Source: Terriglobia bacterium
Lineage (GTDB): Bacteria > Acidobacteriota > Polarisedimenticolia > Polarisedimenticolales > JAIQFR01
DNA length: 64,000 nucleotides
Direction: 5' to 3'
NCBI GenBank assembly: GCA_963790465.1
Contig: CAWBOP010000013.1
Location: 128,092 to 192,091, forward strand
The notes beneath the pieces were generated by a model, which was given only the letters and a program-made list of their open reading frames with translations, made no database searches and had not been told where the DNA came from. Each line of letters begins with the position of its first letter. The first letter of the stretch is position 1. Position numbers and translations under genes: made by a program. Below are positions 2,938 to 64,000 of this stretch, in pieces.

Positions 2938-3606
2938 ATGCTGGACGATCTCGAACTGGCCTGTTTCGCCGTCGGCCCGTTCGTGCAGAACGTGTACGTG
3001 CTGGTCGGCCCATCGGGGAAGCGAGCGGTGCTGTTCGATCCCGGGTTCGGGATCGAGGAAGTGCTGGCGTTCCTCGATCGGCGAGGGCTCGCGCTCGACC
3101 TGGTCGTGAACACGCACGGTCACCTCGATCACGTGGCCGGGAACCGCCTCGTGAAGGAGCGCACCGGCGCGCGTCTCGCGATCCACCCGGCGGACATCCC
3201 TTACCTCCGGAATCTCGCGGCCCAGGCGGCCGCATTCGGGTTCGACGTGCCTTCCTCGCCCGAGCCGGACATCGCTCTCGCGGACGGGGTGCCGCTCGTT
3301 TTCGACGGGGTCGAGATCGACGTGATCCACACGCCGGGGCACACCCCAGGGGGGACCTGCCTCGCGTTCGGGGGTCGCATGATCGTCGGCGACACGCTCT
3401 TCGAGGGAGCGGTCGGAAGGACCGACCTTCCGGGTGGGGATTGGGACGTTCTGGTGGCGTCGATCCGGGAGAAACTGTTCCGGCTGCCGTCGGAGATCGT
3501 CTGCTACCCGGGCCACGGCCCGGACACAACGCTCGGGCGCGAGCGCCTCACGAACCCGTTCGTCTCCGACGCGGCCGTGGGGGGGCGTGAGAAGGAGCGT
3601 TCATGA
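2938..3606 (+). CDS. MBL-fold metallo-hydrolase (glyoxalase II-like)
   Basis: HGHLDHVAGN (HxHxDH) and HTPGHTPGG motifs. I prefer the internal ATG at 2938 (MLDDLELACF...) over the ORF-track start 2803, because the upstream 45 codons overlap repeat/promoter-like sequence. Stop overlaps the rny start (ATGA). Confidence 0.85.
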   Translation: MLDDLELACFAVGPFVQNVYVLVGPSGKRAVLFDPGFGIEEVLAFLDRRGLALDLVVNTHGHLDHVAGNRLVKERTGARLAIHPADIPYLRNLAAQAAAFGFDVPSSPEPDIALADGVPLVFDGVEIDVIHTPGHTPGGTCLAFGGRMIVGDTLFEGAVGRTDLPGGDWDVLVASIREKLFRLPSEIVCYPGHGPDTTLGRERLTNPFVSDAAVGGREKERS

Positions 3607-6893: not shown

Positions 6894-8269
6894 GCCGGGA
6901 CGTCGTCGTCGTGGGGGGAGGGTGCGCGGGGCTCTCCGCGGCGACCGCTCTCGCCGCACAGGGGGCGAGGGTCCGGCTGCTCGAGGCGAGGCGCACGCTC
7001 GGCGGGCGCTCGCGCTCTTTCGTGGACCGGGCGACCGGCGACGTCGAGGACAACGGCCAGCACCTCTTTATGGGGTGCTACTCGAGCTTTCTGACATTCG
7101 CGAGAAGGACCGGCGGCGCCGACACGATCGAGTTCGCGCCGCGGCTCGAGGTGGTGTCGATCCATCCGGGCGGCGCGGTCTCGAAGCTCGAGCCCGCCTC
7201 GCTCCCTCCTCCGCTCGACCTCATGGCGGGGCTCGCGAGGCTGCGAGGTTTCCCGGTAGGCGATCTCGCCGCGGCGGGTTCGCTGGTCCGCGACGTTCGC
7301 CTGGGCGCGCCGCGCGCACTGGGCCGGACGGTCGCCGAGTGGCTCGATCTCCTCGGCGCGTCGTCCGCGGGGCGAGCCGTTCTCTGGGATCCCCTGACCC
7401 TCGCCGCCCTCAACCTCGATCCCGGAGCGGCGCCTGCGACGCTGTTCGCGGAGGTGGTGAAACGATCGTTGCTCGGCGGTCCCGGGGCCGCCCGCCTCGG
7501 CTTCGCGGCGCGCGGCCTCGATGCGGCGATCGCGGGGCCTGCGGCGGCGTACCTTGGCGAGCGTGGCGGGGAGATCCTTTTCGGGAAAGTCGTCGAGCGA
7601 ATCGAGATGGCCGGCGGCCGGTTCGCGTCCGCCGTCTGCCGGGACGGAAGCCGCCACGAGGCTGGCGCCGCGGTACTCGCCGTGCCGCCGCGCGCCGCCG
7701 CGGCACTTCTTCCTCCAGGCGCTTCCGGCTTCGGTCCGGAGCGGGCGGAAGCGCTCGGAGCGTCGCCGATCGTCGAAGTCCACCTCTGGTTCGACCGCGC
7801 TGTCGCCGACCGCCCGATGGTGGGCCTGGTCGGCTCCCCCGTGCAGTGGGTGTTTCGCCGGGAGACAGCCGGTGGGTCCGCGGCAGGGTACGCGGCGCTG
7901 CTCAGGAGCGCCGCGGACGACTGGATCGAGGCGGACGGCGCCCAGATCGTGCGCTCGTCTCTCGAGGAACTGCGCCGCTTCGTTCCGGCGAGCCGAGGGG
8001 CGGCGTTCTTGCGGGCGCGCGTCATCAAGGAGCGCGAGGCGACCGCGCGCTTTACTCCCGCGAACCTCTCCCTGAGGCCGCCCGCCGAGACCGCGCTGCC
8101 GAACCTCGTCCTCGCCGGCGACTGGACCGATACCGGCCTTCCGGCCACGCTCGAAGGGGCCGCGGCCTCCGGCGAGCGCGCCGCCGCGATCCTCGCGGGA
8201 AATAGGGCCAGCCCCCTTTCCCTGCTAGAATCGCGCCGCTTCCCGATGACGAGCGAGGCTGCCCCGTGA
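6890..8269 (+). CDS. hpnE: Hydroxysqualene dehydroxylase HpnE (FAD amine-oxidase family)
   Basis: GTG 6890 overlaps the hpnD stop (GTGA). FAD dinucleotide fold VVVVGGGCAGLSAA at the N-terminus. Position after hpnC-hpnD. Confidence 0.8.
   Translation: MSRDVVVVGGGCAGLSAATALAAQGARVRLLEARRTLGGRSRSFVDRATGDVEDNGQHLFMGCYSSFLTFARRTGGADTIEFAPRLEVVSIHPGGAVSKLEPASLPPPLDLMAGLARLRGFPVGDLAAAGSLVRDVRLGAPRALGRTVAEWLDLLGASSAGRAVLWDPLTLAALNLDPGAAPATLFAEVVKRSLLGGPGAARLGFAARGLDAAIAGPAAAYLGERGGEILFGKVVERIEMAGGRFASAVCRDGSRHEAGAAVLAVPPRAAAALLPPGASGFGPERAEALGASPIVEVHLWFDRAVADRPMVGLVGSPVQWVFRRETAGGSAAGYAALLRSAADDWIEADGAQIVRSSLEELRRFVPASRGAAFLRARVIKEREATARFTPANLSLRPPAETALPNLVLAGDWTDTGLPATLEGAAASGERAAAILAGNRASPLSLLESRRFPMTSEAAP
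8223..8231 (+). promoter_or_regulatory. Extended -10-like box TGCTAGAAT
   Basis: TGnTAGAAT lies 35 nt upstream of the 8266 start. The identical 9-mer recurs upstream of guaB (16128-16136). No -35 box evaluated. Confidence 0.3.
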
Positions 8270-8988
8270 CCGACGCAACGACTTACCTCCTGGCCGGGAC
8301 CGCCGTCGCGACGGCCGTGTTCCACACGCTCATTCCGGACCACTGGCTCCCCTTCGTCCTCATCGGCCGGGCGAGGGGCTGGCGCGCGAGGACGACCGCC
8401 TCGGTCTCGGGGGTCTCGGCGCTGATTCACACCGGCCTTTCGGTCCTCCTTGGCCTGGTCGCGATCCGGCTCGGACACGGGGCGACAGCGGCGCTCGGGC
8501 AGACGCTCGAGCGGGCGAGCGGGTTTCTCCTGGTGGCGTTCGGGCTGATCTACGCGGCCTGGTCCTGGAAGAAGGGGGGGCACTTCCACCCTGGCGGGGC
8601 GATGTTGCACCGCGAGGAGGACGGGCCGGACTGCGACGGGCACGAGGGGGACTCGGACCCCGGCCACCTCCACTACCACGCCGACCGGCAGATCCTCGAG
8701 GGGGCCGCGGGGCGAGGGGCGTTTTACCTCGCGACGATCGTCGGCGTGAACCCGTGCGTGCTCGTCCTCCCGATCATGCTGGCGGCGGCCCAGCACGGAG
8801 TGGGCGCGGTCGCTCTCGTCTCGCTCGCTTACAGCGCCACCACGATCGCGCTCATGATGGGCCTGTCGGTCGCCGGTGTCGCGGGGATCCGGCGGTTCGA
8901 TCCGCCGGGGGCGGCCCGCTACATGGAAGCCGCGAGCGGCCTCCTGATCGCGGCGGTCGGCGTGGTGTTCTGGTTCCTCGATCGGTGA
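8266..8988 (+). CDS. His-rich-loop membrane protein, possible Ni/Co-type metal transporter
   Basis: 240 aa. GTG start overlaps the hpnE stop. Several hydrophobic segments, an HTLIPDHW motif and a central loop HFHPGG..HREEDGPDCDGHEGDSDPGHLHYHAD. Family assignment is tentative. Confidence 0.6.
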   Translation: MTDATTYLLAGTAVATAVFHTLIPDHWLPFVLIGRARGWRARTTASVSGVSALIHTGLSVLLGLVAIRLGHGATAALGQTLERASGFLLVAFGLIYAAWSWKKGGHFHPGGAMLHREEDGPDCDGHEGDSDPGHLHYHADRQILEGAAGRGAFYLATIVGVNPCVLVLPIMLAAAQHGVGAVALVSLAYSATTIALMMGLSVAGVAGIRRFDPPGAARYMEAASGLLIAAVGVVFWFLDR

Positions 8989-20433: not shown

Positions 20434-20536
20434 ACGTCTTATCCGTTGAAGGGAGGCGGTGCTGCGAATAAGGACGACTCGGGAGACTGACCACAGACAC
20501 GTGCAGAGCACGGAACCAACGAGGGAGGGCTTTGAA

Positions 20537-21925
20537 ATGAAGGCACAGACACGTCGCAGCATGTTTCTGATGAGCGTCTTCCTGCTGGTGCTCGCAATGG
20601 CTGTCGTCGCCAGCGTTCAGGCGCAGCAGGGAAAGGTCTCGTCCAGCTACGGCCCGACGAACCAGACCGTGACCTTCGAGCAGATCAAGGCCGCGCGTCT
20701 GGCCGTCAAGGGAGAGCTGGCAAAAGCCCACGGGGAGCTGCTCAGAGCGAGGTACAACCTCGACGTCAAGACCGATCCGGAAGTGAGGATGTCGGGCGGC
20801 AAGTTGGTCCCCGTGGGGCCGACGGCAAGGCTCTCGGGTGTCACCTGGGAGCAACTCGACCGATTGACGCCGGGGCAGATCAAGGAGAAGGGGCTCTTTC
20901 CCTACAAGCCTCTACCCTTCCCCGACCACGCCGAAGGGGGCATGCTCTTCCCCGAGATGACGCTGAAAGCCCTGCCGAGGCTGACCCGCTTCGACCTGGA
21001 CTTCGACCTGCCCGAACAGTTCCTGCCTGACCCGGTGCCGGCCATCTACCTCACCACTCGGCCCGACTTGGGCGATGTGGCCAAGGGCCGGCTCATCACG
21101 ATCAACAATTTCTACGAGATCTTCAATGGCATCCTGAACCCGAAGCAACTCGAAGGGCTCCGTCTCCTGCTCACCCAGTTCCCCCAGCAGCAGTTCAACG
21201 CCACCGAGGACCGGCGGACCGACCGGCCAGACGGCATGCTCGGCGTGACCTGCTTCGACTGCCACGTGAACGGGCACACCAACGACGCCACCCACCTGGT
21301 GGGTGACATCCGACCCCAGGAGTTTCGCCACCGCATCAACACGCCGTCCCTGCGCGGCATGAACATCCAGCGGCTCTTCGGCTCGCAGCGGGCGCTCAAG
21401 ACCGTCGAGGACTTCGTGGAGTTCGAGCAACGGGCCGCGTATTTCGACGGCGATATCTGCATGGCCGCCAAGAAAGGTGTCAACGTTCTGGAGCGGGGAA
21501 CGCAGGTCCACTTCATGGCGGAGTTCCTGGCGCTCCTGGACTTCCCGCCCGCCCCGAAGCTGGACATCTACGGCGAGCTCGATCCGGCCAAAGCGACACC
21601 CGCCGAGCGCAGGGGCGAAACGCTCTTCAACGGCAAGGCGAAGTGCGCCAAGTGCCATCCAGGCCCCTACTACACCGACAACAGCATGAACAACCTCATG
21701 GCCGAGCGCTTCTACAAGCAGGAGCTGGTAAACGGCATGATGATGGCCCATGACGGCCCGATCAAGACCTTCCCGCTCCGGGGCATCAAGGACTCCCCGC
21801 CCTACCTGCACGACGGTCGCTGCCTCACCCTGGAGGACACGGTGGAGTATTTCAACCTTGTCCAGCAGCTCCACCTGAACGCCGAGGAGAAGAAGGACCT
21901 GGTTGCCTTCCTGCGATGCCTGTAG
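20537..21925 (+). CDS. Di-haem cytochrome c peroxidase / MauG-family protein
   Basis: ATG 20537 after GAGGGAGGG. Signal peptide, two haem-c motifs (CFDCH, CAKCH), and a C-terminal RGIKDSPPYLHDGRCLTLEDTVEYF...DLVAFL typical of the CCP family. Confidence 0.85.
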   Translation: MKAQTRRSMFLMSVFLLVLAMAVVASVQAQQGKVSSSYGPTNQTVTFEQIKAARLAVKGELAKAHGELLRARYNLDVKTDPEVRMSGGKLVPVGPTARLSGVTWEQLDRLTPGQIKEKGLFPYKPLPFPDHAEGGMLFPEMTLKALPRLTRFDLDFDLPEQFLPDPVPAIYLTTRPDLGDVAKGRLITINNFYEIFNGILNPKQLEGLRLLLTQFPQQQFNATEDRRTDRPDGMLGVTCFDCHVNGHTNDATHLVGDIRPQEFRHRINTPSLRGMNIQRLFGSQRALKTVEDFVEFEQRAAYFDGDICMAAKKGVNVLERGTQVHFMAEFLALLDFPPAPKLDIYGELDPAKATPAERRGETLFNGKAKCAKCHPGPYYTDNSMNNLMAERFYKQELVNGMMMAHDGPIKTFPLRGIKDSPPYLHDGRCLTLEDTVEYFNLVQQLHLNAEEKKDLVAFLRCL

Positions 21926-48884: not shown

Positions 48885-50896
48885 ACGCTCCTGACCACCA
48901 TCCTGGGGAGCCTGCGCAACGGGCCGCCGCGTCGAAGGCGGCGGCCTGGCGCGGCTGTTCCGACTGCGCATCGGCGCCAAGCTGGAGCTGAGCTTCCTGC
49001 TGATCATCATCCTGATCAGCCTGATCCTCAGCCTGGTGGGCACGTGGGTCATCGGCGACCGCTTCGTGGAGCAGGCCCAGGAGAAGGTGCGCACGGATCT
49101 CAACTCCGCGCGGGAGATCTACCAGAACAACCTGCTGCGGATCAGCGACGCGGTCCGCTTCGTCTCGGACCGGGACTTCGTCCGCTCGCCGGCGTCCGCC
49201 GGCGGCCGCGACCGGCTGCTGCGCCGGCTCTCGGAGCATCCGCGAGCAGGAGCATCTCGACGCCCTGACCGCTGACCGACGCCCGCGGGGTCGTGATCCT
49301 GCGGACCTCGAACCCGGGCGTGTACGGTGACGACCAGAGCCGGCAGCAGCTGGTGCGCGCGGTGCTGCGAGCGGCACGAGCCCGTCGCCGCGACGGTGCT
49401 GATCCCGCACGAGGAGCTGGCCATGACCTCGCCGCGAGCTGGCCGCAGCGGGCGACGATCGAGCTGGTCCCGACGGAGAAGGCGCGGCCGCGCCCCGAGC
49501 GGTACTCGACCGACCGGCATGACGCTCAAGGCGGCGGCGCCGGTGTTCGACTTCGACCACCGCTTCGTCGGCGTCGTCTACGGCGGGCGTGCTGCTGAAC
49601 CGCAACCACGAGATCGTGGACAAGATCAAGCAGACCGTGTTCCAGGGCCTGCAGTACCGCGGCCGGGACATGGGGACCGCGACCATCTTCCAGGACGACC
49701 TGCGGATCTCGACCAACGTCCTGAACGCGGACGGCTCGCGGGCGATCGGCACGCGCGCCGCCGAGAACGTCTACGACGCGGGTGGTGCGGGACGGCCAGC
49801 AGTGGATCCACCGCGCCTACGTCGTCCGCGACTGGTCCATCACCGCGTACGAGCCGATCCGGGACTACGGCGGCGCCATCATCGGCATGCTGTACGTGGG
49901 GCTGCTCGAGGGGAAGTACGTCGAGGTCCGCCGCCGCACCGTGTTCGTGTTCCTGGCGGTCACGCTGGTCGGCTCGCTGCTGGCGCTCACGCTGTCCCAC
50001 TACCTCTCGCAGCGCATCTCGGGCTCGCTGGAGCAGCTGGTCGCCGGCGCGGAGCAGCTCGCGTGCGGGAACCTGGACCAGCGGGTCGAGATCCGCTCCG
50101 GCGACGAGTTCCAGGAGCTGGCCGAGACGTTCAACGCCATGGCGGCGGCGCTCAAGAAGCGGGACGAGCAGCTCAAGGAGCAGGCCGCGCGCAAGGTCAT
50201 GGAGTCCGAGCGGCTCGCCCTGATCGGGCAGCTGGCCGCCGGCGTGGCCCACGAGATCAACAACCCGCTCACCGGCATCGTGACCTACTCGCAGCTGCTG
50301 CTGGAGAAGAACCCGGGCGAGGGCTCCACGCGCTCGTCGCTGCAGAAGATCGTCACGCAGGCGAACCGCTGCCGCAAGATCGTCCGCGGGCTGCTGGACT
50401 TCTCGCGCCAGAGCAAGCCCGACGAGCGTCCGTGCAACGTGAACACGGTGCTGCAGGAGTGCGTCTCGCTGGTGGCCAACCAGGCGCTGTTCCACAACAT
50501 CGAGCTGGTGCAGAACGCTTCGGCCGAGGACCTGCCGCTGGTGCCGATGGACCCGTCGCAGATGCAGCAGGTCTTCATGAACCTGATCATCAACGCGGCG
50601 GAGGCGACGCCCGCGGATGGCCGTCTGACGCTGACGACCCGGCGTGGACGCGATCGGGCCGGTTCGTCGAGTTCGAGTTCGCCGACACCGGCTGCGGCAT
50701 CAAGGAGGCGGACCTGGAGCGGATCTTCGATCCCTTCTTCACGACGAAGGGGGCGCGCCGCGGGACCGGGCTGGGGCTGGCGATCAGCTACGGGATCGTC
50801 AAGGAGCACCGGGGCACCATCGCGGTCGAGAGCAAGGTCGGCAAGGGCACCACGTTCGTGGTGAGCCTGCCGTTGTCGCTGGAGGAGGCGGCGTAG
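48881..50896 (+). CDS. Sensor histidine kinase with TM, Cache-like sensor, HAMP, HisKA and HATPase domains (frame breaks, start uncertain)
   Basis: TM LSFLLIIILISLILSLVG. Cache-like region ..ATIFQDDLRISTNVLNADGSRAIGTRA..AYEPIRDYGGAIIGMLYVG. HAMP. H-box GVAHEINNPL. NLIINAAEA, DTGCGI, GTGLGL. Confidence 0.8.
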
Positions 50897-50899
50897 GAC

Positions 50900-52064
50900 G
50901 TGGAGAAGCCCAGCAGGATCCTGATCATCGACGACGAGGAGATCGTCCTCGATTCCTGCCTCGCGGTGCTGGAGGGCAGGAACTACGAGATCGCCACGGC
51001 CCCGGACGGGACCGAGGGCCTGAAGCTGGCGCAGGAGTTCGCGCCGGACCTGGTCCTGGTGGACCTGATGATGCCGGGCATCTCCGGGTTCGAGGTGCTG
51101 GAGGGGATGCGCGGCATCGACCCGACGATCGTGACCATCGTCATCACCGGCTACTCGACGGTGGAGTCCGCGGTCGAGGCGATGAAGCGGGGGGCGTTCG
51201 ACTTCCTGCCCAAGCCCTTCACGCCCGACGAGCTGCGCCTGATCGTCCAGCGCGGTCTCGAGCACCGCCGGCTGGTGCTGGAGACCATCACCCTGCGCCG
51301 GGAGAAGGAGATGCTGCAGCAGAACTTCGCGGCGATCATCTCCCACGAGCTGCGCTCGCCGCTGAGCGCGGTCCAGCAGAACCTGTTCGTGCTCACGGCC
51401 GAGCTGGACGCACCAGCTCAACGAGTCGCAGAAGGACCGTTTCGAGCGCCTCAAGGCCCGGATCGCCGACCTGCTCAAGATGATCCAGAGCTGGCTGCGG
51501 GCCGTGTCGGTCCCCGAGGGGAAGATCGGCGGGGACTTCGCCCCCGTGTCGGTCCAGGCCGCGATCGCCAGGGCGATCGAGAGCGTGCAGCCGCACGCGA
51601 CGCGCAAGGACATCGCGATCACCGACTCCGACGCCGGGTCCCTGCCGCCGGTGCTCGGGGACGAGACGATCCTGACCGAGGCGCTGGTCAACCTGATCGG
51701 CAACGCCGTCAAGTACACGCACGCGGGGGGCAAGGTCGCCGTGAGCGCCGCGGTGGAGGCCGGCCAGGTCGTGGTCTCGGTCGCCGACACCGGCGTCGGC
51801 ATCGCGGCGGAGGACGTGCCCTTCGTCTTCGACGCGTTCTACCGTGGCAAGATCGGCCCCGACGCCGAGGCGGGGTGCGGTCTGGGGCTGGCGCTCACGC
51901 GCCGGATCATCGAGGCCCACCACGGCACCATCTCGGTCGAGAGCGAGGTCGGCAAGGGGACGACGTTCACCGTCCGCCTGCCCGTGCATACCGCAGAGAG
52001 CACCAGCCCGCCCGGAGAGGCACCGGCTGCCCCATCCACCCGTGATCCCGGAGACCAGCGATGA
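50900..52064 (+). CDS. Hybrid response-regulator receiver + histidine kinase (one or two frame breaks)
   Basis: REC (ILIIDDE..LVLVDLMMPG..LPKPF). H-box ISHELRSPL. NLIGNAVKYT, DTGVGI, GLGLAL. Confidence 0.8.
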
Positions 52065-52484
52065 GCGATCGCAAGCAGCTGCTGATGATCGACGACGATC
52101 CCGATTTCGTCGATGGCATCAAGTCCATCCTGACGGCCGCCCAGTACGACGTCGACGTCGCCCACAACCCGAAGGACGGCCTCGCGGCGCTGCAGAAGAA
52201 GAAGTACGACCTGCTGCTGCTCGACATCATGATGGGGCGCGGCGCCGAGGGCGTCATGATCGCGCGCAAGATGAGCCGGGACCCCAAGCTGCGCGAGATC
52301 CCCGTGCTGATCATGACCGGGCATCCGGGAGCAGATCGCCTTCCTGTTCGGCAGCCAGGCGCTGCACCCCCACTTCGTCGAGGTGGACGAGCTGATGGAG
52401 AAGCCGGTCGAGCCGCGGCTCCTCCTGGAGCGGATCGAGGCGCTGCTGAAGGCGGCGAGCGCGAAGGCAAGCGAGAAGAAATGA
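52061..52484 (+). CDS. Stand-alone response-regulator receiver protein (one frame break)
   Basis: LLMIDDDPDF..LLLLDIMMG..PVLIMTG, then the C-terminus ..MEKPVEPRLLLERIEALL in the adjacent frame. The start overlaps the upstream stop (ATGA). Confidence 0.75.
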
Positions 52485-53062
52485 GCACCGAGACCATGGA
52501 GACCAGGCTGGATTTCATCGGGGAGATCAACAACCTCCTCCACGCCTCCACCAGCAACCCGGTGAACACCTGCATCCAGTGCGGGACGTGCTCCGGGTCC
52601 TGCCCGGTGGCCTCCGGCGGGTTCATGAGCCACACGCCGCGGCGGATCATCGCGATGATCCGGGCGAACCGGAAGGATGAGACGCTCCGGGCGAACACCT
52701 ACTGGTACTGCTCGTCGTGCTACATGTGCACGGTGCGGTGCCCGCGGGGGATCGACATCGCGGAGCTGATGTACGCGCTGAAGCGCTACTCGATCTGGAA
52801 GAGCGAGTACGCCAAGGACCTCATCGGCCCGACGTTCTCCGAGACGTTCATCCAGACCATCATGAAGAGCGGCCGGTCCTACGAGCCGGTGCTGGCGACG
52901 ACCTATCTGTTCTCCTTCGGCTTCCAGGACATGCTGCAGGAAGCGGCGACCGCGACCGGCCTGATGCTCAAGGGCCGCATGCCGGTGCTGCCGCCCCGGA
53001 TCAAGCGGCTGGAGAACTTCAAGCGGATGATCCGGAAGATCGTCCCGGTGGAGGAGAAATGA
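52481..53062 (+). CDS. hdrC: Heterodisulfide reductase subunit C-like (2x[4Fe-4S])
   Basis: CIQCGTCSGSCP and CSSCYMCTVRCP. Intact frame. The start overlaps the upstream stop. Confidence 0.85.
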   Translation: MSTETMETRLDFIGEINNLLHASTSNPVNTCIQCGTCSGSCPVASGGFMSHTPRRIIAMIRANRKDETLRANTYWYCSSCYMCTVRCPRGIDIAELMYALKRYSIWKSEYAKDLIGPTFSETFIQTIMKSGRSYEPVLATTYLFSFGFQDMLQEAATATGLMLKGRMPVLPPRIKRLENFKRMIRKIVPVEEK

Positions 53063-53951
53063 CCAGGAAGTACGCGTACTTCCCGGGCTGCTCGCTGGAG
53101 AAGATGGCGCGGAGCTACCACGACTCCGCGATGGAGACGACGCGCGCCCTCGATGTCGAGCTGCAGGAGATCGAGGACTGGAACTGCTGCGGCGCGACCA
53201 CCTACTTCAACATCGACGAGCTGCTCGCCTACACGCTGTGCGCGCGCAACCTCGCCATCGCGGAGCAGCTCGAAGCTGGACGTCGATCGCGCCCTGCAGC
53301 GGCTGCTACAAGAACATGTACGCCGCCCGCAAGCACCTCAAGCACGAGCCGGATCTCATGGAGCACATCAACGAGGCGCTGGCCGAGGACGACCTGAAGT
53401 TCGCGGGGACCTCCGAGGTGCGCCACCTGATCGACGTGCTGGTGAAGGACGTCGGGCTCGAGGAGATCAAGAAGCGGGTGCGCCGGCCGCTGACCGGCCT
53501 CAAGGTGGCGCCCTACTACGGCTGCCAGATCGTGCGTCCGCGCAAGGACCACGAGGACGTCGAGTCGCCGCGCTTCTTCGAGGACCTGATGACGGCGATC
53601 GGCGCGGACCCGGTGGAGTACCTGCTCAAGCTCCGCTGCTGCGGCGGCGCGCTGCTGATCACCAACCGCGAGGCGGCGCTCAGCCTGGTGCGGAACCTGC
53701 TGGAGAACGCGGTGCAGTCCGGCGCGGCGATCATCGCCACCGCCTGCCCGCTCTGCCAGGTCAACCTGGAGTGCTACCAGAAGCAGGTCAACAGCGAGTT
53801 CGGAACGAACCTCAACATGCCGGTGCTCTACTTCACGCAGCTGGTCGGGCTGGCGCTCGGCGTCCCGCCCGGCAAGCTGGGCATCGGCTCGGAGCTCGTC
53901 AACGTCATGCCGGCGCTCGCCAGCGCGGGGAGCGGCGGAGGTGGACGTTGA
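53059..53951 (+). CDS. hdrB: Heterodisulfide reductase subunit B-like (two CCG domains; one frame break)
   Basis: FPGCSL, WNCCGA, CSGCY, YYGCQ, LRCCGG, ACPLCQ. The start overlaps the hdrC stop (ATGA). Confidence 0.85.
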
Positions 53952-54011: not shown

Positions 54012-55546
54012 ATGAACCCAGTCACTGGAGCAGTCTCGAAGGGCGACACCGGGGCCGCCGCCGTCGCCCAGGGCAAGCGCATCACCATCGATCCGATCAC
54101 CCGCCTCGAGGGGCACGGGAAGATCGACATCTTCCTGGACGACCAGGGCGACGTGGAGCACGCCTACCTGCAGATCCCCGAGCTGCGCGGCTTCGAGGTG
54201 TTCAGCATCGGGCCGGCCCGCGGAGGACATGCCGCAGATCACCAGCCGCATCTGCGGCGTCTGCCCCACGGCGCACCACATGGCCGCCACCAAGGCGCTG
54301 GACGACCTCTACCAGGTCGAGCCGCCGCCCGCGGCGAGGAAGATCCGCGAGCTGGTCTACAACGCCTTCATGTTCGAGGACCACGCGCTGCACGTCTACA
54401 TCCTGGGCGGGCCGGACTTCATCGTCGGGCCGGACGCGCCCGCGGCGAAGCGCAACGTGGTGGGCGTGATCGAGACGGTCGGCGTCGACGTCGGCAAGCA
54501 GGTCATCAGCATGCGCCGGCGCGTGCGCGAGCTGATCGCGTACTTCGGCGGCAAGGTGATCCACCCGGTGCTCGGCCTGCCCGGCGGCGTGTCGAAGGGC
54601 CTGGCGCCGTCCGACCTGCCGCGGTTCAAGGAGCTGGCGAAGGAGTCGGTCGAGTTCGCGCAGTTCACGCTCCAGGTGTTCAAGGACATCGTCCTGAAGA
54701 ACCCGGAGTACGTGAAGCTGATCACCTCGGACGCCTACACCCACAAGACCTACTACATGGGCATGGTGGACGCGAACAACAAGGTGAACTTCTACGACGG
54801 CCTGATCCGCGTCGTGGACCCGGCCGGCAAGGAGTACGCGAAGTTCCCGGCGCAGAAGTACCGCGACTACATCGGCGAGCACGTCGAGCCGTGGAGCTAC
54901 ATCAAGTTCCCGTTCCTGAAGCCGCTGGGCTGGAAGGGCTTCGTGGACGGGCCGGAGACCAGCCTGTTCGCGGTCGCGCCGCTGGCGCGGCTGAACGCCG
55001 TCCGACGGCATGGCGACGCCGCTGGCGCAGAAGGCCTACGAGGAACTCTTCGCCACGCTCGGCGGGAAGCCGGTGCACCACACGCTGGCCAACCACTGGG
55101 CGCGCGTGCGTCGAGATGCTCCAGGCGGCCGAGCGCATGGTCGAGCTGCTGAACGACCCGGAGATCATCAGCCCGGACATCCGCACCATCCCGACCGCAG
55201 AAGCCCACGGTCGGGCATCGGCGTGGTCGAGGCGCCGCGCGGCACGCTGTTCCACCACTACGAGACCGACGAGAACGGCATCATCACGATGGCGAACCTC
55301 ATCGTCGCGACGCAGAACAACGCGGCCCGCATCGCGATGAGCGTGGACAAGGCCGCCAAGGGCCTGATCTCGAAGGGCAAGGTCACCGACGGCCTGCTGA
55401 ACATGGTCGAGATGGCGTTCCGCGCCTACGACCCGTGCTTCGGCTGCGCCACGCACGCGCTGCCGGGGGAGATGCCGCTGATCGCGCGCATCTACGACCC
55501 GGACCGCCAGCTGGTGCAGGAGATCCGTCGCGACCCGAAGGCGTAG
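54012..55546 (+). CDS. mvhA: [NiFe]-hydrogenase large subunit, cytoplasmic Mvh/group-3-like (few frame breaks)
   Basis: RLEGHG, RICGVCPTAHH (N-terminal Ni-binding), DPCFGCATH (C-terminal Ni-binding, Cys not Sec). Confidence 0.9.
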
Positions 55547-55711: not shown

Positions 55712-56179
55712 ATGAAGATCATCGTGCTGGGGCTGGGCAACGACCTGCTGGCGGACGACGCCATCGGCCACCTGGCCGTGAAGCGAACTCGGGCCGCGCC
55801 TGGAGGGCCGGGCCGACGTCGAGGCCACGGCGCTGCACGGACTGGCCCTGCTCGACGTGCTGGCGGGCTACGACGCCGCGGTCGTGCTCGACGCGGCCTG
55901 CACGGGCGACGCGCCCGGTCGGCGAGGTCCACGAGATCGACGCCGGCACGCTGGCCCGCGTCCAGAACCCCTCGCCGCACTTCGCGGGGTTCCCCGAGAT
56001 GCTCGACCTCGCCGGGCCGCCTCGAGCTGCACTTCCCGCAGAAGCTGCGGATCATCGCGGTCGAGGTGCTGGACCCGTACACCGTGGGCGGTGTCATGAC
56101 GCCCGCGGTGCGCGACGCGCTGCCCGAGCTGTGCGAGCGCGCGGAGCAGGCGGTGGGGGAGCTGGAAGCAGGAGGCTGA
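55712..56179 (+). CDS. Hydrogenase maturation endopeptidase (HycI/HoxW/FrhD family; frame breaks)
   Basis: MKIIVLGLGNDLLADDAIG... and ..SPHFAGFPEMLDL.. are typical of the family. Confidence 0.8.
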   Translation: MKIIVLGLGNDLLADDAIGHLAVKRTRAAPGGPGRRRGHGAARTGPARRAGGLRRRGRARRGLHGRRARSARSTRSTPARWPASRTPRRTSRGSPRCSTSPGRLELHFPQKLRIIAVEVLDPYTVGGVMTPAVRDALPELCERAEQAVGELEAGG

Positions 56180-56225: not shown

Positions 56226-56453
56226 TCAGGGTGTGGCGGGGATCAGGTCCAGCACTTCACCCGGCTCGGGGAACCGCCCGGTCTCGTGCTTCGAGAAGAG
56301 GGTCGCTCCGTCGAGGACGACCTCGAAGATGCCACCGGAGCCCTTCACCAGCTCCGCCTCGATGCCCCTCGCACCACGGATCTCGGCCGCCAGACCGGCA
56401 GCCCTGGGCAGGTACCCTCACTGACCGCAGTAGGTGATCGTCAGCCTGCTCAT
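56226..56453 (-). CDS. SelW/SelT/SelH (Rdx)-family selenoprotein candidate, in-frame TGA = Sec
   Basis: Not callable as a plain ORF. Reads MSRLTITYCGQ-[TGA 56420-56418]-GYLPRAAGLAAEIRGARGIEAELVKGSGGIFEVVLDGATLFSKHETGRFPEPGEVLDLIPATP, with the same frame on both sides. The TGA sits exactly at the second redox position of the family CxxC/CxxU motif. GAGGGAGG SD. Confidence 0.7.
56385..56403 (-). other. SECIS-like hairpin downstream of the in-frame TGA
   Basis: On the coding strand, GGCTGCC-GGTCT-GGCGGCC gives a 7-bp stem (one G-U pair) and a GGUCU loop, starting 14 nt after the TGA. The loop resembles the E. coli fdhF SECIS apical loop. Confidence 0.45.
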
Positions 56454-56678
56454 GTCGCCTCCCTCGGGTGCGTGAACGGCTCCTGGAGGCACTATAGGCT
56501 CGCCTCCCGGCCCTGCCAAAGTCCGCGGCCCCGTCAACACCCGCAGCTCCGCCGCGGTTCGGCGCGCGCGACACCCGCGCCGCTTTCCGTGCGCCTGCGC
56601 GACGGACTAAGATGCGAGCCCTCGCAACGGCCGTCCCGGGGCCACCGGCTCCCGCGGCCCGACCCTGGAGATCCACGC

Positions 56679-57666
56679 ATGGCTGACCCCGCCCCGAACC
56701 TCGAGGACCGCCTGCAGCGAACGCTCGGCGACGGACTGCGCGAGGGCGGAGCCGCTGCGGCTCCACACCACCTTCCGCATCGGCGGCCCCGCCGACTTCT
56801 TCTATGTCGCCCGCAGCCCCGAGCGCCTGGTGGCGGCGCTGCGGGTCGGCCACGAACTGGGCCTGCCGGTCTTCCTGCTCGGCGGTGGCAGCAACCTGCT
56901 GGTGTCGGACGCGGGGCTGCGCGGGCTCGTCGTGCGGAACGCCTGCGAAGAGGTCGAGTTCGAGGGCGCGGTGGCCCGCGTGGGCTGTGGCGCGGATCTC
57001 CTCGGCTTCATCGAGCGCTGCCGCGACCGCTCGCTCGCGGGGCTCGAGTTCGCGGCGGGGATCCCGGGCACCGTCGGCGGCGCGCTCTACGGCAACGCCG
57101 GCTGCTATGGCCGGGACATCGGCTCCCAGGTCATCGACTGCACGCACGCCACTCCCGACGGCGCGACGATCGAGACGCGGCCGGCGGCCTGGTACGAGTT
57201 CGGCTACCGGGACTCGCGCCTCAAGCGCGACCCGCGCGTGCTGCTCTCGTGCCGGCTGCGGCTCGTGCCCGGCGAGCGTGCGACCATCCAGCGCGAGATG
57301 GACGAGAAGCTCGAGATCCGCCGGGTGAAGCACCCCGAGTGGCGCACCGAGCCCACCGCGGGCTCGTACTTCAAGAACCTGCCGCCCGACTGGCAGATGC
57401 CGGGAGCGAAGCACTCGCCCGGCACGCGCCGCGTGGCCGCGGGGCAGTTGCTCGAGGAGTGCGGCTGCCGCGGCCTGCGCGTGGGCGACGCCATGGTCTT
57501 CGCGAAGCACGCGAACATCATCGTGAACGCGGGCCAGGCGAGCGCGGCGGACGTGCTGGCGCTGGCGCAGGAGATGAAGTCGCGGGTGCGCGAGCGCTTC
57601 GGCGTCACGCTCGAGGAGGAGGTCATGTTCCTGGGGGCGAGGCCGGAGCCCGGCGGGGCCTCGTAG
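56679..57666 (+). CDS. murB: UDP-N-acetylenolpyruvoylglucosamine reductase (one frame break)
   Basis: TTFRIGGPADFF, FLLGGGSNLL, GIPGTVGGA, AGSYFKN. Frame change near 56750. Confidence 0.9.
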
Positions 57667-61890: not shown

Positions 61891-62125
61891 CGTTCTATAA
61901 TTTTGAAATTGTTGTTGAGAAAGAATCAGAGGACGGAGGTTACTCGGCCTACAGTCCTACGTTACCGGGCTGCCACAGTAATGGCGGCACGGTGTTGAAG
62001 AAGCAAATCGTAATATCCGCGAAGCGATTCAGCAGCACATTCAATCTCTACTCGCTCATGGCCAGCCGATTCCCCAGAACGAAAAACTTGTACACGTGGA
62101 GGAGCTGACCGTTGGAGTTCCATAA
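61887..62125 (+). CDS. hicB: HicB antitoxin, one frame break
   Basis: MTFYNFEIVVEKESEDGGYSAYSPTLPGCHSNG.., then ..EEANRNIREAIQQHIQSLLAHGQPIPQNEKLVHVEELTVGVP in the adjacent frame. The TAATG overlaps hicA. Confidence 0.75.
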
Positions 62126-62353
62126 TGGCACGGATGCCACAGGTCACGCCTGCCGACCTTGTGCGTTTTCTAAAATCTCAAGGATTCACAGAAGACCGAC
62201 AGTCCGGGAGTCATCTGACACTCTGGCATGAGAGTCGGAAGGTGTCGGTGACTATTCCGATGCATACAGGCTGTCGTTCTCGGCCGCGGCCTCGCAGTAC
62301 GTATTCTAAAAGATGCGGGGTTTTCAGTTGAAGAGTTCTTGCGTCTTCGCTGA
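62125..62353 (+). CDS. hicA: HicA mRNA-interferase toxin, one frame break
   Basis: MPQVTPADLVRFLKSQGFTEDRQSGSHLTLWHE..VSVTIPMHTG, then VVLGRGLAVRILKDAGFSVEEFLRLR in the adjacent frame. Confidence 0.75.
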
Positions 62354-62386
62354 AGCGGCTTCCAGACAAGAGCGCTGAAGGTGGCA

Positions 62387-62424
62387 GGGCAATGCCCAGT
62401 GACGAGTGACCAATAACGAATAAC
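62387..62424. repeat. GGGCAATGCCC near-palindrome followed by heptads (CAGTGAC, GAGTGAC, CAATAAC, GAATAAC)
   Basis: Read directly from the sequence. GAGTGAC recurs at 62993-62999. Confidence 0.75.
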
Positions 62425-62437
62425 GGAGACACTTGCC

Positions 62438-62587
62438 ATGAAACAGGGCTATCGGTTGATCCTTGTGGACAAAGACGGTGTGATGGTCTCGGAATTCCAA
62501 GTGACCGAAGGCGACCTGGCTGATCCGGCGGCGTTCGTGGCGGCGCTCAAGGAGTCGATCGAGCAGGTGGAAGAGGAAGAACCCTAG
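62438..62587 (+). CDS. Mini-ORF, 49 aa, acidic C-terminus (hypothetical)
   Basis: Below the ORF-track cutoff. MKQGYRLILVDKDGVMVSEFQVTEGDLADPAAFVAALKESIEQVEEEEP. GGAGA 8 nt upstream. Its TAG stop is the first unit of the next heptad array. Confidence 0.4.
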   Translation: MKQGYRLILVDKDGVMVSEFQVTEGDLADPAAFVAALKESIEQVEEEEP

Positions 62588-62668
62588 AAATGGGCATTGG
62601 GCACTGGGCAATGGGCATTGGGCATTGAGAAGAATGCGAGCGATGAGCGATGAGTGATGAGGAGGAGA
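62585..62668 (+). repeat. Array of 12 in-register 7-nt units (TAGAAAT, GGGCAYT x5, GAGAAGA, ATGCGAG, CGATGAG x2, TGATGAG, GAGGAGA)
   Basis: Read directly from the sequence. The last unit, GAGGAGA, serves as the SD of the following mini-ORF. Confidence 0.85.
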
Positions 62669-62672
62669 CTAC

Positions 62673-62843
62673 ATGCCGCAAAAGAAGAAGAGCATCACAC
62701 CCAAGAAGGGCGGAGGCAAGTCAAAGGGCCAACAGGTCCGCGAGACGCAGCGGCCGCGCAGCGCGCGGCAAGGCCAGGGCCCGGCGGATAGGCAGAAGGA
62801 CCAACAGCAACGCGCCACCGGAAAGAGGTCGGGCGGAAACTAA
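62673..62843 (+). CDS. Mini-ORF, 56 aa, extremely basic (hypothetical)
   Basis: MPQKKKSITPKKGGGKSKGQQVRETQRPRSARQGQGPADRQKDQQQRATGKRSGGN. Strong SD. Its TAA stop is the first unit of the next heptad array. Confidence 0.45.
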   Translation: MPQKKKSITPKKGGGKSKGQQVRETQRPRSARQGQGPADRQKDQQQRATGKRSGGN

Positions 62844-62897
62844 AAATGGGCACTGGGCAATGGGCAAGGGACAAACGTCACTGGTCATTAGTCATTC
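62841..62897 (+). repeat. Array of 8 in-register 7-nt units (TAAAAAT, GGGCACT, GGGCAAT, GGGCAAG, GGACAAA, CGTCACT, GGTCATT, AGTCATT)
   Basis: Read directly from the sequence. Confidence 0.85.
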
Positions 62898-62902
62898 GTA
62901 AA

Positions 62903-62979
62903 GCCCCTCCTTTGTAAGGAGGGATGACGGGGAGGTAGAGATCTCTACCCCACCTCACCTCCCCCTTACAAAGGGGAGG
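62903..62979. repeat. ~70-nt palindromic element, copy 2
   Basis: gcccctcctttgtaaggagg...ggtagagatctctacc (perfect 16-nt palindrome)...cccccttacaaaggggagg. Confidence 0.8.
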
Positions 62980-62985
62980 AAGGCT

Positions 62986-63037
62986 GGTTGACGAGTGACT
63001 AGAAACGGGCACTGGGCACTAGGCAATGGGCAATGCC
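62986..63037 (+). repeat. Array of in-register 7-nt units (GGTTGAC, GAGTGAC, TAGAAAC, GGGCACT x2, AGGCAAT, GGGCAAT)
   Basis: Read directly from the sequence. Confidence 0.85.
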
Positions 63038-63070
63038 TGACCGGACGGGACTAGGGGGACGAAGAAGAGA

Positions 63071-63814
63071 TTAGGACGTTGAATGCATCGCCGAGTGCAG
63101 TCTGTGCGAGCTTGATTCTCTGTGGCTCATGAACTCTGTGATGGCGTCTGCGGCGGCTGTTGGGTTGGTGTACATGACGTAGTGGCGGCCCTCAATCATG
63201 CGGACGCGGACGGACGGTCGAACGCGTACAATCTCCTCGACATTGCGCTGTGGGACGATCCGGTCCCGCGTGCCGGCAAGACAGAGCACGGGACACGGCA
63301 GGGCCCCCCGTAAGTATTCTCGTGCATCCACGTCTATGAGCGCCGCCGCGCGGGCTGCCGCCGCCCGGGCACTTGTCCGCCTCCAGGTTTCTTTCTTGGC
63401 CCTGCGAAATTGATCGTTCTGTCCTCGGGCCAGCCACAGAGGAATGCGACGTCCACTCCGCACCGCCCAGGCCACCGGTGGGACTGCGGCAAACCGCAGG
63501 CGCGAAAAAATCGGGCGGGGTGAGCGGAGGAAGGTCGCAGACAGGATAGCCCCTTGGACCCTGGTCGGCTCGGCGGCAGCGAGCATGAGCGCCAGCGGAC
63601 CGGAAAACGACGAGCCCAGCACGTAGAAATCGGACAGGCCTGCCAGCTCTCCCCGGACTATATCCAACAGATGTGGGTACTCATTGGCCCCGGTTGAAGG
63701 AAAGCAAATCACATGCGGTCGTACCCAATGGGGCAGGGCTGCCAGCAGCGGTCGAAAAAACACATCGGTCCCGTCGAGACCTGGGAGGAGCACTAACGTC
63801 GTTGGCTTCTGCAT
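63071..63814 (-). CDS. Alpha/beta-fold hydrolase
   Basis: 247 aa. LVLLPGLDGT and the nucleophile elbow GSSFSG. Intact frame. Confidence 0.75.
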   Translation of the reverse strand: MQKPTTLVLLPGLDGTDVFFRPLLAALPHWVRPHVICFPSTGANEYPHLLDIVRGELAGLSDFYVLGSSFSGPLALMLAAAEPTRVQGAILSATFLRSPRPIFSRLRFAAVPPVAWAVRSGRRIPLWLARGQNDQFRRAKKETWRRTSARAAAARAAALIDVDAREYLRGALPCPVLCLAGTRDRIVPQRNVEEIVRVRPSVRVRMIEGRHYVMYTNPTAAADAITEFMSHRESSSHRLHSAMHSTS

Positions 63815-63934
63815 GTGGGTTGGTCAAAAAAAAGAATCAGCGGAGAAACGTGTTTCGCGGCATTATTTCGGGGAATGATCAGACTTCATTTTCTATGATG
63901 ATATACAACGTGTCGGAGGATGGGTCAAGGAGGC

Positions 63935-64000
63935 CAGAAACGGGCACTGGGCATTGAGAGACAGGCAATGGGCATATAGAAACAGGCACTGGGCAATGGG
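63935..64000 (+). repeat. Heptad array (CAGAAAC, GGGCACT, GGGCATT, GAGAGAC, AGGCAAT, GGGCATA, TAGAAAC, AGGCACT, GGGCAAT, ...), truncated by window end
   Basis: Read directly from the sequence. Confidence 0.85.

Follow-up and report, generated by a model that had tools for sequence, protein, structure and literature searches.

Bacterial selenoproteins of the SelW-like family have been known since 2005. In the Sargasso Sea data they outnumbered every other selenoprotein family, with 48 genes (PMC1088965; Zhang, Fomenko and Gladyshev 2005), and few or no Cys homologs were found for them in organisms using selenocysteine (Sec) (PMC1794560; Zhang et al. 2006). The latter study treated SelW-like as a family in which Sec is the original form (PMC1794560). 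These bacterial proteins carry a CXXU motif and their SECIS hairpin is located just 3' of the UGA, inside the coding region (PMC1088965, PMC1794560). Eukaryotic selenoprotein W / MIEN1 (2LJK) belongs to the same Rdx fold family and has its CxxU or CxxC at the same position, whereas in eukaryotes the SECIS is a 3' UTR element of another structure (PMC1088965). Rdx proteins of solved structure are also available in the Cys form, namely Atu0228 (2FA8), 2OJL, SAV_2001 (3DEX), 2OKA, 2OBK and 2P0G. They have Cys instead of Sec, are about 100-108 residues long and exhibit a WL or WLP motif after the CxxC. Finally, the SECIS of the E. coli fdhF gene provides a reference for the RNA element, being a coding-region hairpin positioned just 3' of the UGA in a different host protein.

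The locus described here lies in a 64-kb stretch of DNA (hereafter, the window) and shows no difference in kind from the bacterial SelW-like selenoproteins: same domain, same CXXU motif, and a hairpin that follows directly 3' of the UGA inside the coding sequence. It consists of a 75-codon redox-protein gene that very probably uses an in-frame UGA and a conserved RNA hairpin for selenocysteine insertion (Table 1). On the strength of sequence comparisons, we are highly confident that the gene is functional and specifies a small SelW-like/Rdx redox protein with a predicted thioredoxin fold, residue 12 of its Cys9-x-x-Sec12 motif being selenocysteine. The frame reads MSRLTITYCGQ, then TGA, then GYLPRAAGLAAEIRG...GEVLDLIPATP up to the stop.

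Table 1. Features of the predicted selenoprotein locus, in window coordinates
Feature	Position	Strand	Remarks
SelW-like (Rdx-family) selenoprotein gene, predicted	56226..56453	-	75 codons including Sec12, plus stop; based on the frame, on PF10262 and TIGR02174 above cut-off and on homology to solved structures
Sigma-70-like promoter TTGGCA-17 nt-TATAGT	56491..56519	-	Predicted; consensus match only
Shine-Dalgarno-like site GAGGGAGG	56458..56465	-	4 nt ahead of the ATG; read directly
Start codon ATG	56453-56451	-	Read in the sequence
Redox motif Cys9-Gly-Gln-Sec12 (TGC GGT CAG TGA)	56418..56429	-	C-x-x-TGA in 84/84 related loci (best 80 of 301 relatives plus 4 others)
In-frame UGA (TGA), putative selenocysteine codon	56418..56420	-	Same column as the second CxxC Cys of Cys-form homologs
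SECIS hairpin, predicted	56385..56403	-	5' arm GGCUGCC 56403-56397, loop GGUCU 56396-56392, 3' arm GGCGGCC 56391-56385
True stop TGA of the selenoprotein gene	56226..56228	-	Homologs terminate within a few residues of the same point
murB, divergent from the selenoprotein gene	56830..57666	+	MurB_C and FAD_binding_4

The signals expected upstream of such a gene could be read in the sequence. The candidate promoter matches 10 of the 12 consensus positions, and none was found in 50 shuffles of the region. Its TATAGT box is also encountered upstream of the orthologs carried by two independent metagenome contigs, L001 and L002, and both orthologs exhibit a Shine-Dalgarno-like site at the same place (GAAGGAGG in L001 and GAGGGAGG in L002).

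The protein family was assigned by profile searches in which Sec was written as Cys. The Pfam Rdx profile PF10262 matched residues 3-71 with an E-value of 1e-18 and 67.7 bits (cut-off 22.6), and the NCBIfam model TIGR02174 (CXXU_selWTH) scored 58.2 bits (cut-off 34.2). The top NCBIfam model was NF041051 (SelTWH_Campy), with 84.9 bits over residues 5-71; this is short of its curated cut-off of 88, so that the present gene is not an equivalog member of that model despite its being the best-scoring one. Seven solved Rdx-family chains (2FA8, 2OJL, 3DEX, 2OKA, 2LJK, 2OBK and 2P0G) were also matched by sequence, the homology to the solved structures again spanning residues 3-71, and the CxxC of the Cys forms aligned to C9..U12. 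In the three alignments printed among these seven matching chains, the YCTQC of 2FA8, 2OJL and 3DEX falls onto the YCGQ[TGA] of the query. Likewise, the TGA column corresponds to the second Cys of the CxxC in the Cys-form homologs P0001-P0009. Taken together, Cys-form homologs and solved structures read YCTQC or YCGxC at this place. The present protein differs from the Cys forms of solved structure by its shorter length (75 residues) and by a GY/NY-x-P in its clade where these carry WL or WLP.

These results could be confronted with a preliminary description of the gene made from the DNA letters. Its positions for the ATG, the in-frame TGA, the stop and a hairpin starting 14 nt past the TGA were each confirmed on the minus strand, and the single frame it had proposed, continuing past the TGA to 56228-56226, reads as described over 75 codons. 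Its assignment to the Rdx/SelW family agrees with PF10262 and TIGR02174, both above cut-off, and its placing of the TGA at the second redox position holds in the alignment with the Cys homologs and with 2FA8, 2OJL and 3DEX. It had also called the gene unannotatable, which is overstated given that TIGR02174 and NF041051 are already curated in NCBIfam.

To collect related loci, one genome per species was searched with patterns for C-terminal peptides only (FSKHETGR and [VI][KE]GSGG[IV]F[DE]); the N-terminal motif thus had no part in locus selection. The search returned 301 relatives, of which the best 80 were taken, and 4 metagenome loci fetched from the homologs of a protein search were added, yielding 84 loci. 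All 84 (best 80 of 301, plus 4) display C-x-x-TGA in frame, and in all of them the TGA is preceded by a conserved I/V-x-Y/F-C strand with a start codon about 10 codons upstream. Because C-x-x-TGA is conserved in frame in 84/84 loci (best 80 of 301, plus 4), the codons before and after the TGA are most simply read as parts of a single translated protein. The loci are labelled as eight or more phyla, the record titles among these 84 (again the best 80 of 301 and 4 more) comprising Candidatus Eisenbacteria, Acidobacteriota, Planctomycetota, Betaproteobacteria, Verrucomicrobiales, Spirochaetaceae, Chondromyces and Desulfobacula. Among the best 80 of the 301 relatives, the closest protein match comes from a Candidatus Eisenbacteria MAG with 95% identity, and on this basis the window was assigned to that candidate phylum. 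The TGA is kept in this MAG and in the next closest Eisenbacteria MAG (L005 and L006, 95% and 92% identical, respectively), as well as in the two metagenome contigs L001 and L002. It was present at the same codon in each of the first four DNA loci fetched for homologs; L001 is a syntenic contig with the order moaA-murB-Rdx, and L003 and L004 represent a lineage of about 60% identity with a different genomic context.

The protein search returned three kinds of homologs: full-length sequences with CxxC, full-length sequences with an apparent CxxW, and many N-terminally truncated sequences of 41-60 residues. The latter are what is expected if gene callers halted at the TGA. For instance, the close relatives P0012 and P0013 are stored as 41-aa products truncated at the N-terminus, and the TGA could be confirmed in the DNA for P0012, P0013 and P0024. 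The public entries truncated to 41-60 aa are P0012, P0013 and P0020-P0028, some of which bear the name 'selenoprotein W-related protein'. Public entries with a W at the Sec column are P0011, P0014, P0015, P0016 and P0018, a TGA being presumed at that codon. The SelW-like family looks systematically mis-called in public protein sets. The expectation that a standard ORF caller would miss the gene was borne out for the homologs, which appear as 41-aa stubs or with a W at the TGA column. For annotation, this means a real gene that ordinary ORF callers miss or truncate. Judged from its sequence, we regard it as a genuine new SelW-like bacterial selenoprotein of an already known family. Our literature search found no paper mentioning Candidatus Eisenbacteria together with selenocysteine.

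We then compared the hairpin with the bSECIS model as quoted in Fig. 2A of the 2026 review PMC13188914, where the loop is given as 3-9 nt, the stem as 4-16 bp, the UGA-to-loop distance as 16-37 nt and the minimum free energy as at most -7.5 kcal/mol, with at least one G in loop positions 1-2, usually followed by G or U. The present element has a 5-nt loop, GGUCU, with G at positions 1 and 2, closed by a 7-bp stem. The loop lies 21 nt from the UGA, corresponding to a 14-nt spacer and the 7-nt 5' arm. The minimum-free-energy structure computed for the region contains this hairpin, and the isolated 19-mer has a folding energy of -12.7 kcal/mol; 81 of the 84 orthologous hairpins (best 80 of 301, plus 4) also lie within the energy limit of the model. 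For comparison, we folded the E. coli fdhF SECIS, the sequence of which was verified against 5,419 E. coli genomes. Its apical loop is GGUC and starts 18 nt after the UGA, versus GGUCU and 21 nt here, and the GU is kept in 82/84 orthologs (best 80 of 301, plus 4). The present hairpin differs from it in having no bulged U in the upper stem and a C-G instead of an A-U closing pair.

Taken as a single sequence, the element does not stand out. The 66-nt stretch folds no better than its dinucleotide shuffles (z = 0.33), an unremarkable result that is expected in DNA of 69% GC. No SECIS family of Rfam was matched, either at the gathering threshold over the whole 64-kb window or at a permissive threshold over positions 56300-56470. 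The only candidate there was a Guanidine-II (mini-ykkC) match at 56309-56337 on the plus strand, opposite to the Rdx coding sequence and inside it, with 16.3 bits against a gathering value of 32 and an E-value of 0.24 in a 171-nt search; it was rejected as most likely due to chance. The 11-nt core GCCRGTYTGGC is expected by chance 0.39 times per window, and the hairpin-core pattern matched only the present element. The significance of the feature is derived from comparison across sequences and not from the single sequence.

For this comparison, the 84 sequences (best 80 of 301 relatives, plus 4) were aligned without gaps, using the TGA as anchor. The core GCNGCC-RGUYU-GGCN'GC was found at a fixed distance from the TGA, with the same spacing in 82/84 orthologs (best 80 of 301, plus 4). 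Among 78 orthologs, the loops were GGUCU (52), AGUCU (12), AGUUU (10), AGUGU (2) and other sequences (2). The hairpin overlies the codons Arg17 (third base)-Ala-Ala-Gly-Leu-Ala-Ala. Third-codon positions +21, +24 and +27 within the element reach 1.8-1.9 bits, versus 0.2-0.6 bits for most third positions outside it. Such near-invariant synonymous sites are best read as selection on the RNA and not on the protein. As the stretch doubles as the presumed SelB-binding hairpin, Ala-Ala-Gly/Ser-Leu-Ala-Ala is written in near-identical nucleotides in most of the 84 loci (best 80 of 301, plus 4), whatever phylum their labels give, which would make it a very clean case of a protein sequence held in place by an RNA signal.

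The pairing itself was evaluated on the same 84 sequences (best 80 of 301, plus 4). The 7-bp helix given in Table 1 is paired in 90.3% of the alignment cells, against 17-59% when the 3' arm is slid by 1-3 columns. Strong covariation is observed at one pair only, 24:36, formed by two synonymous Ala third positions: C:G in 61 sequences, U:G in 9, U:A in 7, G:C in 3, G:U in 2, and unpaired in 2 (all 84; best 80 of 301, plus 4). The loci with the U:A and G:C variants bear the labels of different phyla. The stem is weaker at its outer end, where the last two pairs are missing from 18 and 27 of the 84 sequences (best 80 of 301, plus 4), so that the conserved core amounts to 5-6 bp. A de novo prediction by RNAalifold gave a slipped register of 4 bp with -3.85 kcal/mol, a slippage by 3 nt being allowed by the repetitive GCCGCC/GGCGGC arms. 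We rejected this register since the helix of Table 1 pairs in 90% of cells versus at most 59% for slid versions and carries the covariation. Two loci, L047 and L070 (positions 3031-3084 in both), exhibit a variant CGCUGC-AGUU-GCAGCG with a 6-bp stem and a 4-nt loop, shifted by about 1 nt, together with the peptide AAVAAD in place of AAGLAA. In these loci, RNA and peptide appear to have changed together.

Homologs in the Cys form were used as a control. In 4 such homologs from 2 lineages, the peptide AAGLA is kept and the canonical hairpin is lost in 4/4. In L087, the loop loses its GU because GGC-CTC replaces GGT-CTG. In L088-L090, GCG replaces GCC at the loop-closing pair, and a Sec-form paralog located downstream on the same contig keeps GCCGCC-AGUUU-GGCGGC. 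The direction of the change is what a SECIS predicts, the sample being a small one of 4 sequences from 2 lineages. Thus, the GGUCU-loop hairpin pointed out as SECIS-like in the preliminary description fits the bSECIS model, is conserved and covarying, and loses its canonical form in the Cys-form homologs. The contigs L088-L090 contain tandem pairs in which a Cys-form Rdx gene (CVxC) is followed on the same strand, about 60-130 nt downstream, by a Sec-form gene (CGM-TGA). The coordinates are 601-852 and 945-1145 in L088, 510-767 and 824-1009 in L089, and 237-497 and 632-817 in L090. These paralog pairs offer natural material for studying the gain or loss of a SECIS.

A mechanism for the present gene can be drawn from established bacterial Sec biology, the known picture of Sec insertion being left unchanged. 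An mRNA would be produced from the promoter about 40 nt upstream and its translation would start at ATG 56453. With the ribosome at UGA 56420-56418, the loop of the hairpin would lie 21 nt downstream. SelB-GTP carrying Sec-tRNA(Sec) would bind the hairpin and bring Sec to the A site in place of release factor 2, and translation would end at the normal TGA stop, 56228-56226. In thiol-dependent redox reactions, the protein presumably switches from a selenol/thiol form to a Cys9-Sec12 selenenylsulfide and back. We infer SelB binding, Sec insertion and redox function for this gene, and likewise the Sec-decoding trait for its host genome. No selA, selB, selC or selD gene was found in the 64-kb window or in the DNA flanking the 84 loci (best 80 of 301, plus 4); for 64 kb out of a multi-megabase genome, such an absence carries no information. 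Within the window, tblastn with E. coli SelA and SelD gave no match and ARAGORN detected no tRNA. A SelB-like tblastn match at 722-1144 was discarded, the GTPase being TypA/BipA according to Pfam. Scanning the window for in-frame TGA codons flanked by high GC3 gave three candidates for a second selenoprotein, none of them convincing.

Four other readings of the TGA were weighed. In the first, the hairpin is a genuine recoding signal and the inserted residue is Cys: the UGA would be decoded by tRNA-ReC/SelC*, a Cys-charged tRNA-Sec-like molecule, either exclusively or beside Sec. According to the 2026 paper PMC13582414, which cites Vargas-Rodriguez et al. 2018, tRNA-ReC decodes UGA as Cys with a downstream SECIS. 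It is reported in about 17% of the Sec-type genomes analysed and is said to limit every Sec call made by bioinformatics (PMC13582414), and the decoding tRNA of the present host is not identifiable within the 64-kb window. Such decoding, or its mixture with that by tRNA-Sec, would yield a mixed Cys/Sec protein set by the selenium supply, the hairpin, frozen in its nucleotides over eight or more phyla, then marking a widely exchanged recoding cassette and not plain Sec insertion. Against this stands the fixation of TGA in 84/84 loci (best 80 of 301, plus 4) across many phyla, since TGC or TGT would give Cys at a lower cost, and the view of SelW-like as originally a Sec family (PMC1794560). We consider both Cys recoding and the mixed protein to be very unlikely.

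The second reading takes the TGA for a true stop codon, with a pseudogene at the locus or a truncated downstream product (e.g. one of 40 aa from GTG 56348), and the hairpin for an incidental GC-rich structure. In its favour, P0012, P0013 and other homologs were cut short in just this way by gene callers, the fold does not surpass that of shuffled sequences, and other genes of the window are broken. However, the 11 codons ahead of the TGA encode the conserved beta-1 strand and Cys, with a start codon and a Shine-Dalgarno site, in 84/84 loci (best 80 of 301, plus 4), and a product starting after the TGA would be deprived of the redox motif that defines the family. Neither the conservation at synonymous sites nor the covariation is expected from an incidental structure. 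A real stop is thus highly improbable, and a translated UGA with Sec as the inserted residue remains the preferred reading.

The third reading is a sequencing or assembly error masking a TGC or TGT codon for Cys. The base-level quality is indeed imperfect, since the hydrogenase, protease and kinase genes nearby show frame breaks of the indel type. These breaks are indels, however, whereas the conversion of TGC or TGT into TGA would be a substitution, and the same TGA is found in L005, L006, L001, L002 and all other loci (84/84; best 80 of 301, plus 4). Such an error is hardly conceivable. Finally, a genome-wide reassignment by which UGA would mean Trp or Gly (genetic code 4 or 25) in a host devoid of Sec machinery has a negligible probability. 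TGA is the usual stop in the window: 11 of 14 genes with Pfam support close with it where their domains are expected to end, and so does the selenoprotein gene. Neither W nor G is workable in a CxxC/CxxU redox motif. The W at the TGA column of P0011, P0014-P0016 and P0018, which would speak for reassignment, is most simply explained by the genetic code applied in gene calling.

The predicted selenoprotein gene adjoins moaA and is convergent with a [NiFe] hydrogenase cluster. MurB is adjacent in all nine Eisenbacteria-type loci (L001, L005-L008, L010, L013, L015 and L016), where it is 75-92% identical. No neighbour conserved across phyla was detected among the loci, in which we found only lineage-specific synteny and shadow ORFs due to high GC. 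With no cross-phylum neighbour and with the murB adjacency confined to Eisenbacteria-type loci, the context gives no clue to function.

Several other features of the window were recorded. The large subunit of the [NiFe] hydrogenase is split over at least two or three frames on the plus strand (53958.., 54016-55152 and 54995-55546), and its C-terminal motif DPCFGC indicates a Cys-type and not a [NiFeSe] enzyme. The ORF of a HycI-like protease (55712-56179, plus strand) has recognisable termini and an Arg-rich, out-of-frame middle without Pfam match. A sensor histidine kinase is also split on the plus strand, with HisKA in 49725-50864 and HATPase in 51366-52064. The state of these hydrogenase, protease and kinase genes suggests indel errors of a long-read MAG, or pseudogenes. 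Directly upstream of the hydrogenase large subunit, 53031-53951 (plus strand) encodes a CCG cysteine-rich (HdrB-like) protein, preceded by a response-regulator receiver domain fused to a 4Fe-4S dicluster domain (52046-53062, plus strand). In the region 52046-53951, a signalling domain is combined with heterodisulfide-reductase-like modules, which is unusual. At the end of the window, the GC content falls to 0.576 over positions 62001-64000, the rest of the window lying at 0.66-0.74, and GC and AT skew are both positive there. Neither an Rfam family nor a tRNA was detected in this segment, which may be of foreign origin or non-coding. Finally, two plus-strand ORFs without Pfam match at E <= 1e-5 (20450-21925 and 8206-8988) exhibit a strong coding signature, with GC3 values of 0.87 and 0.90, respectively.
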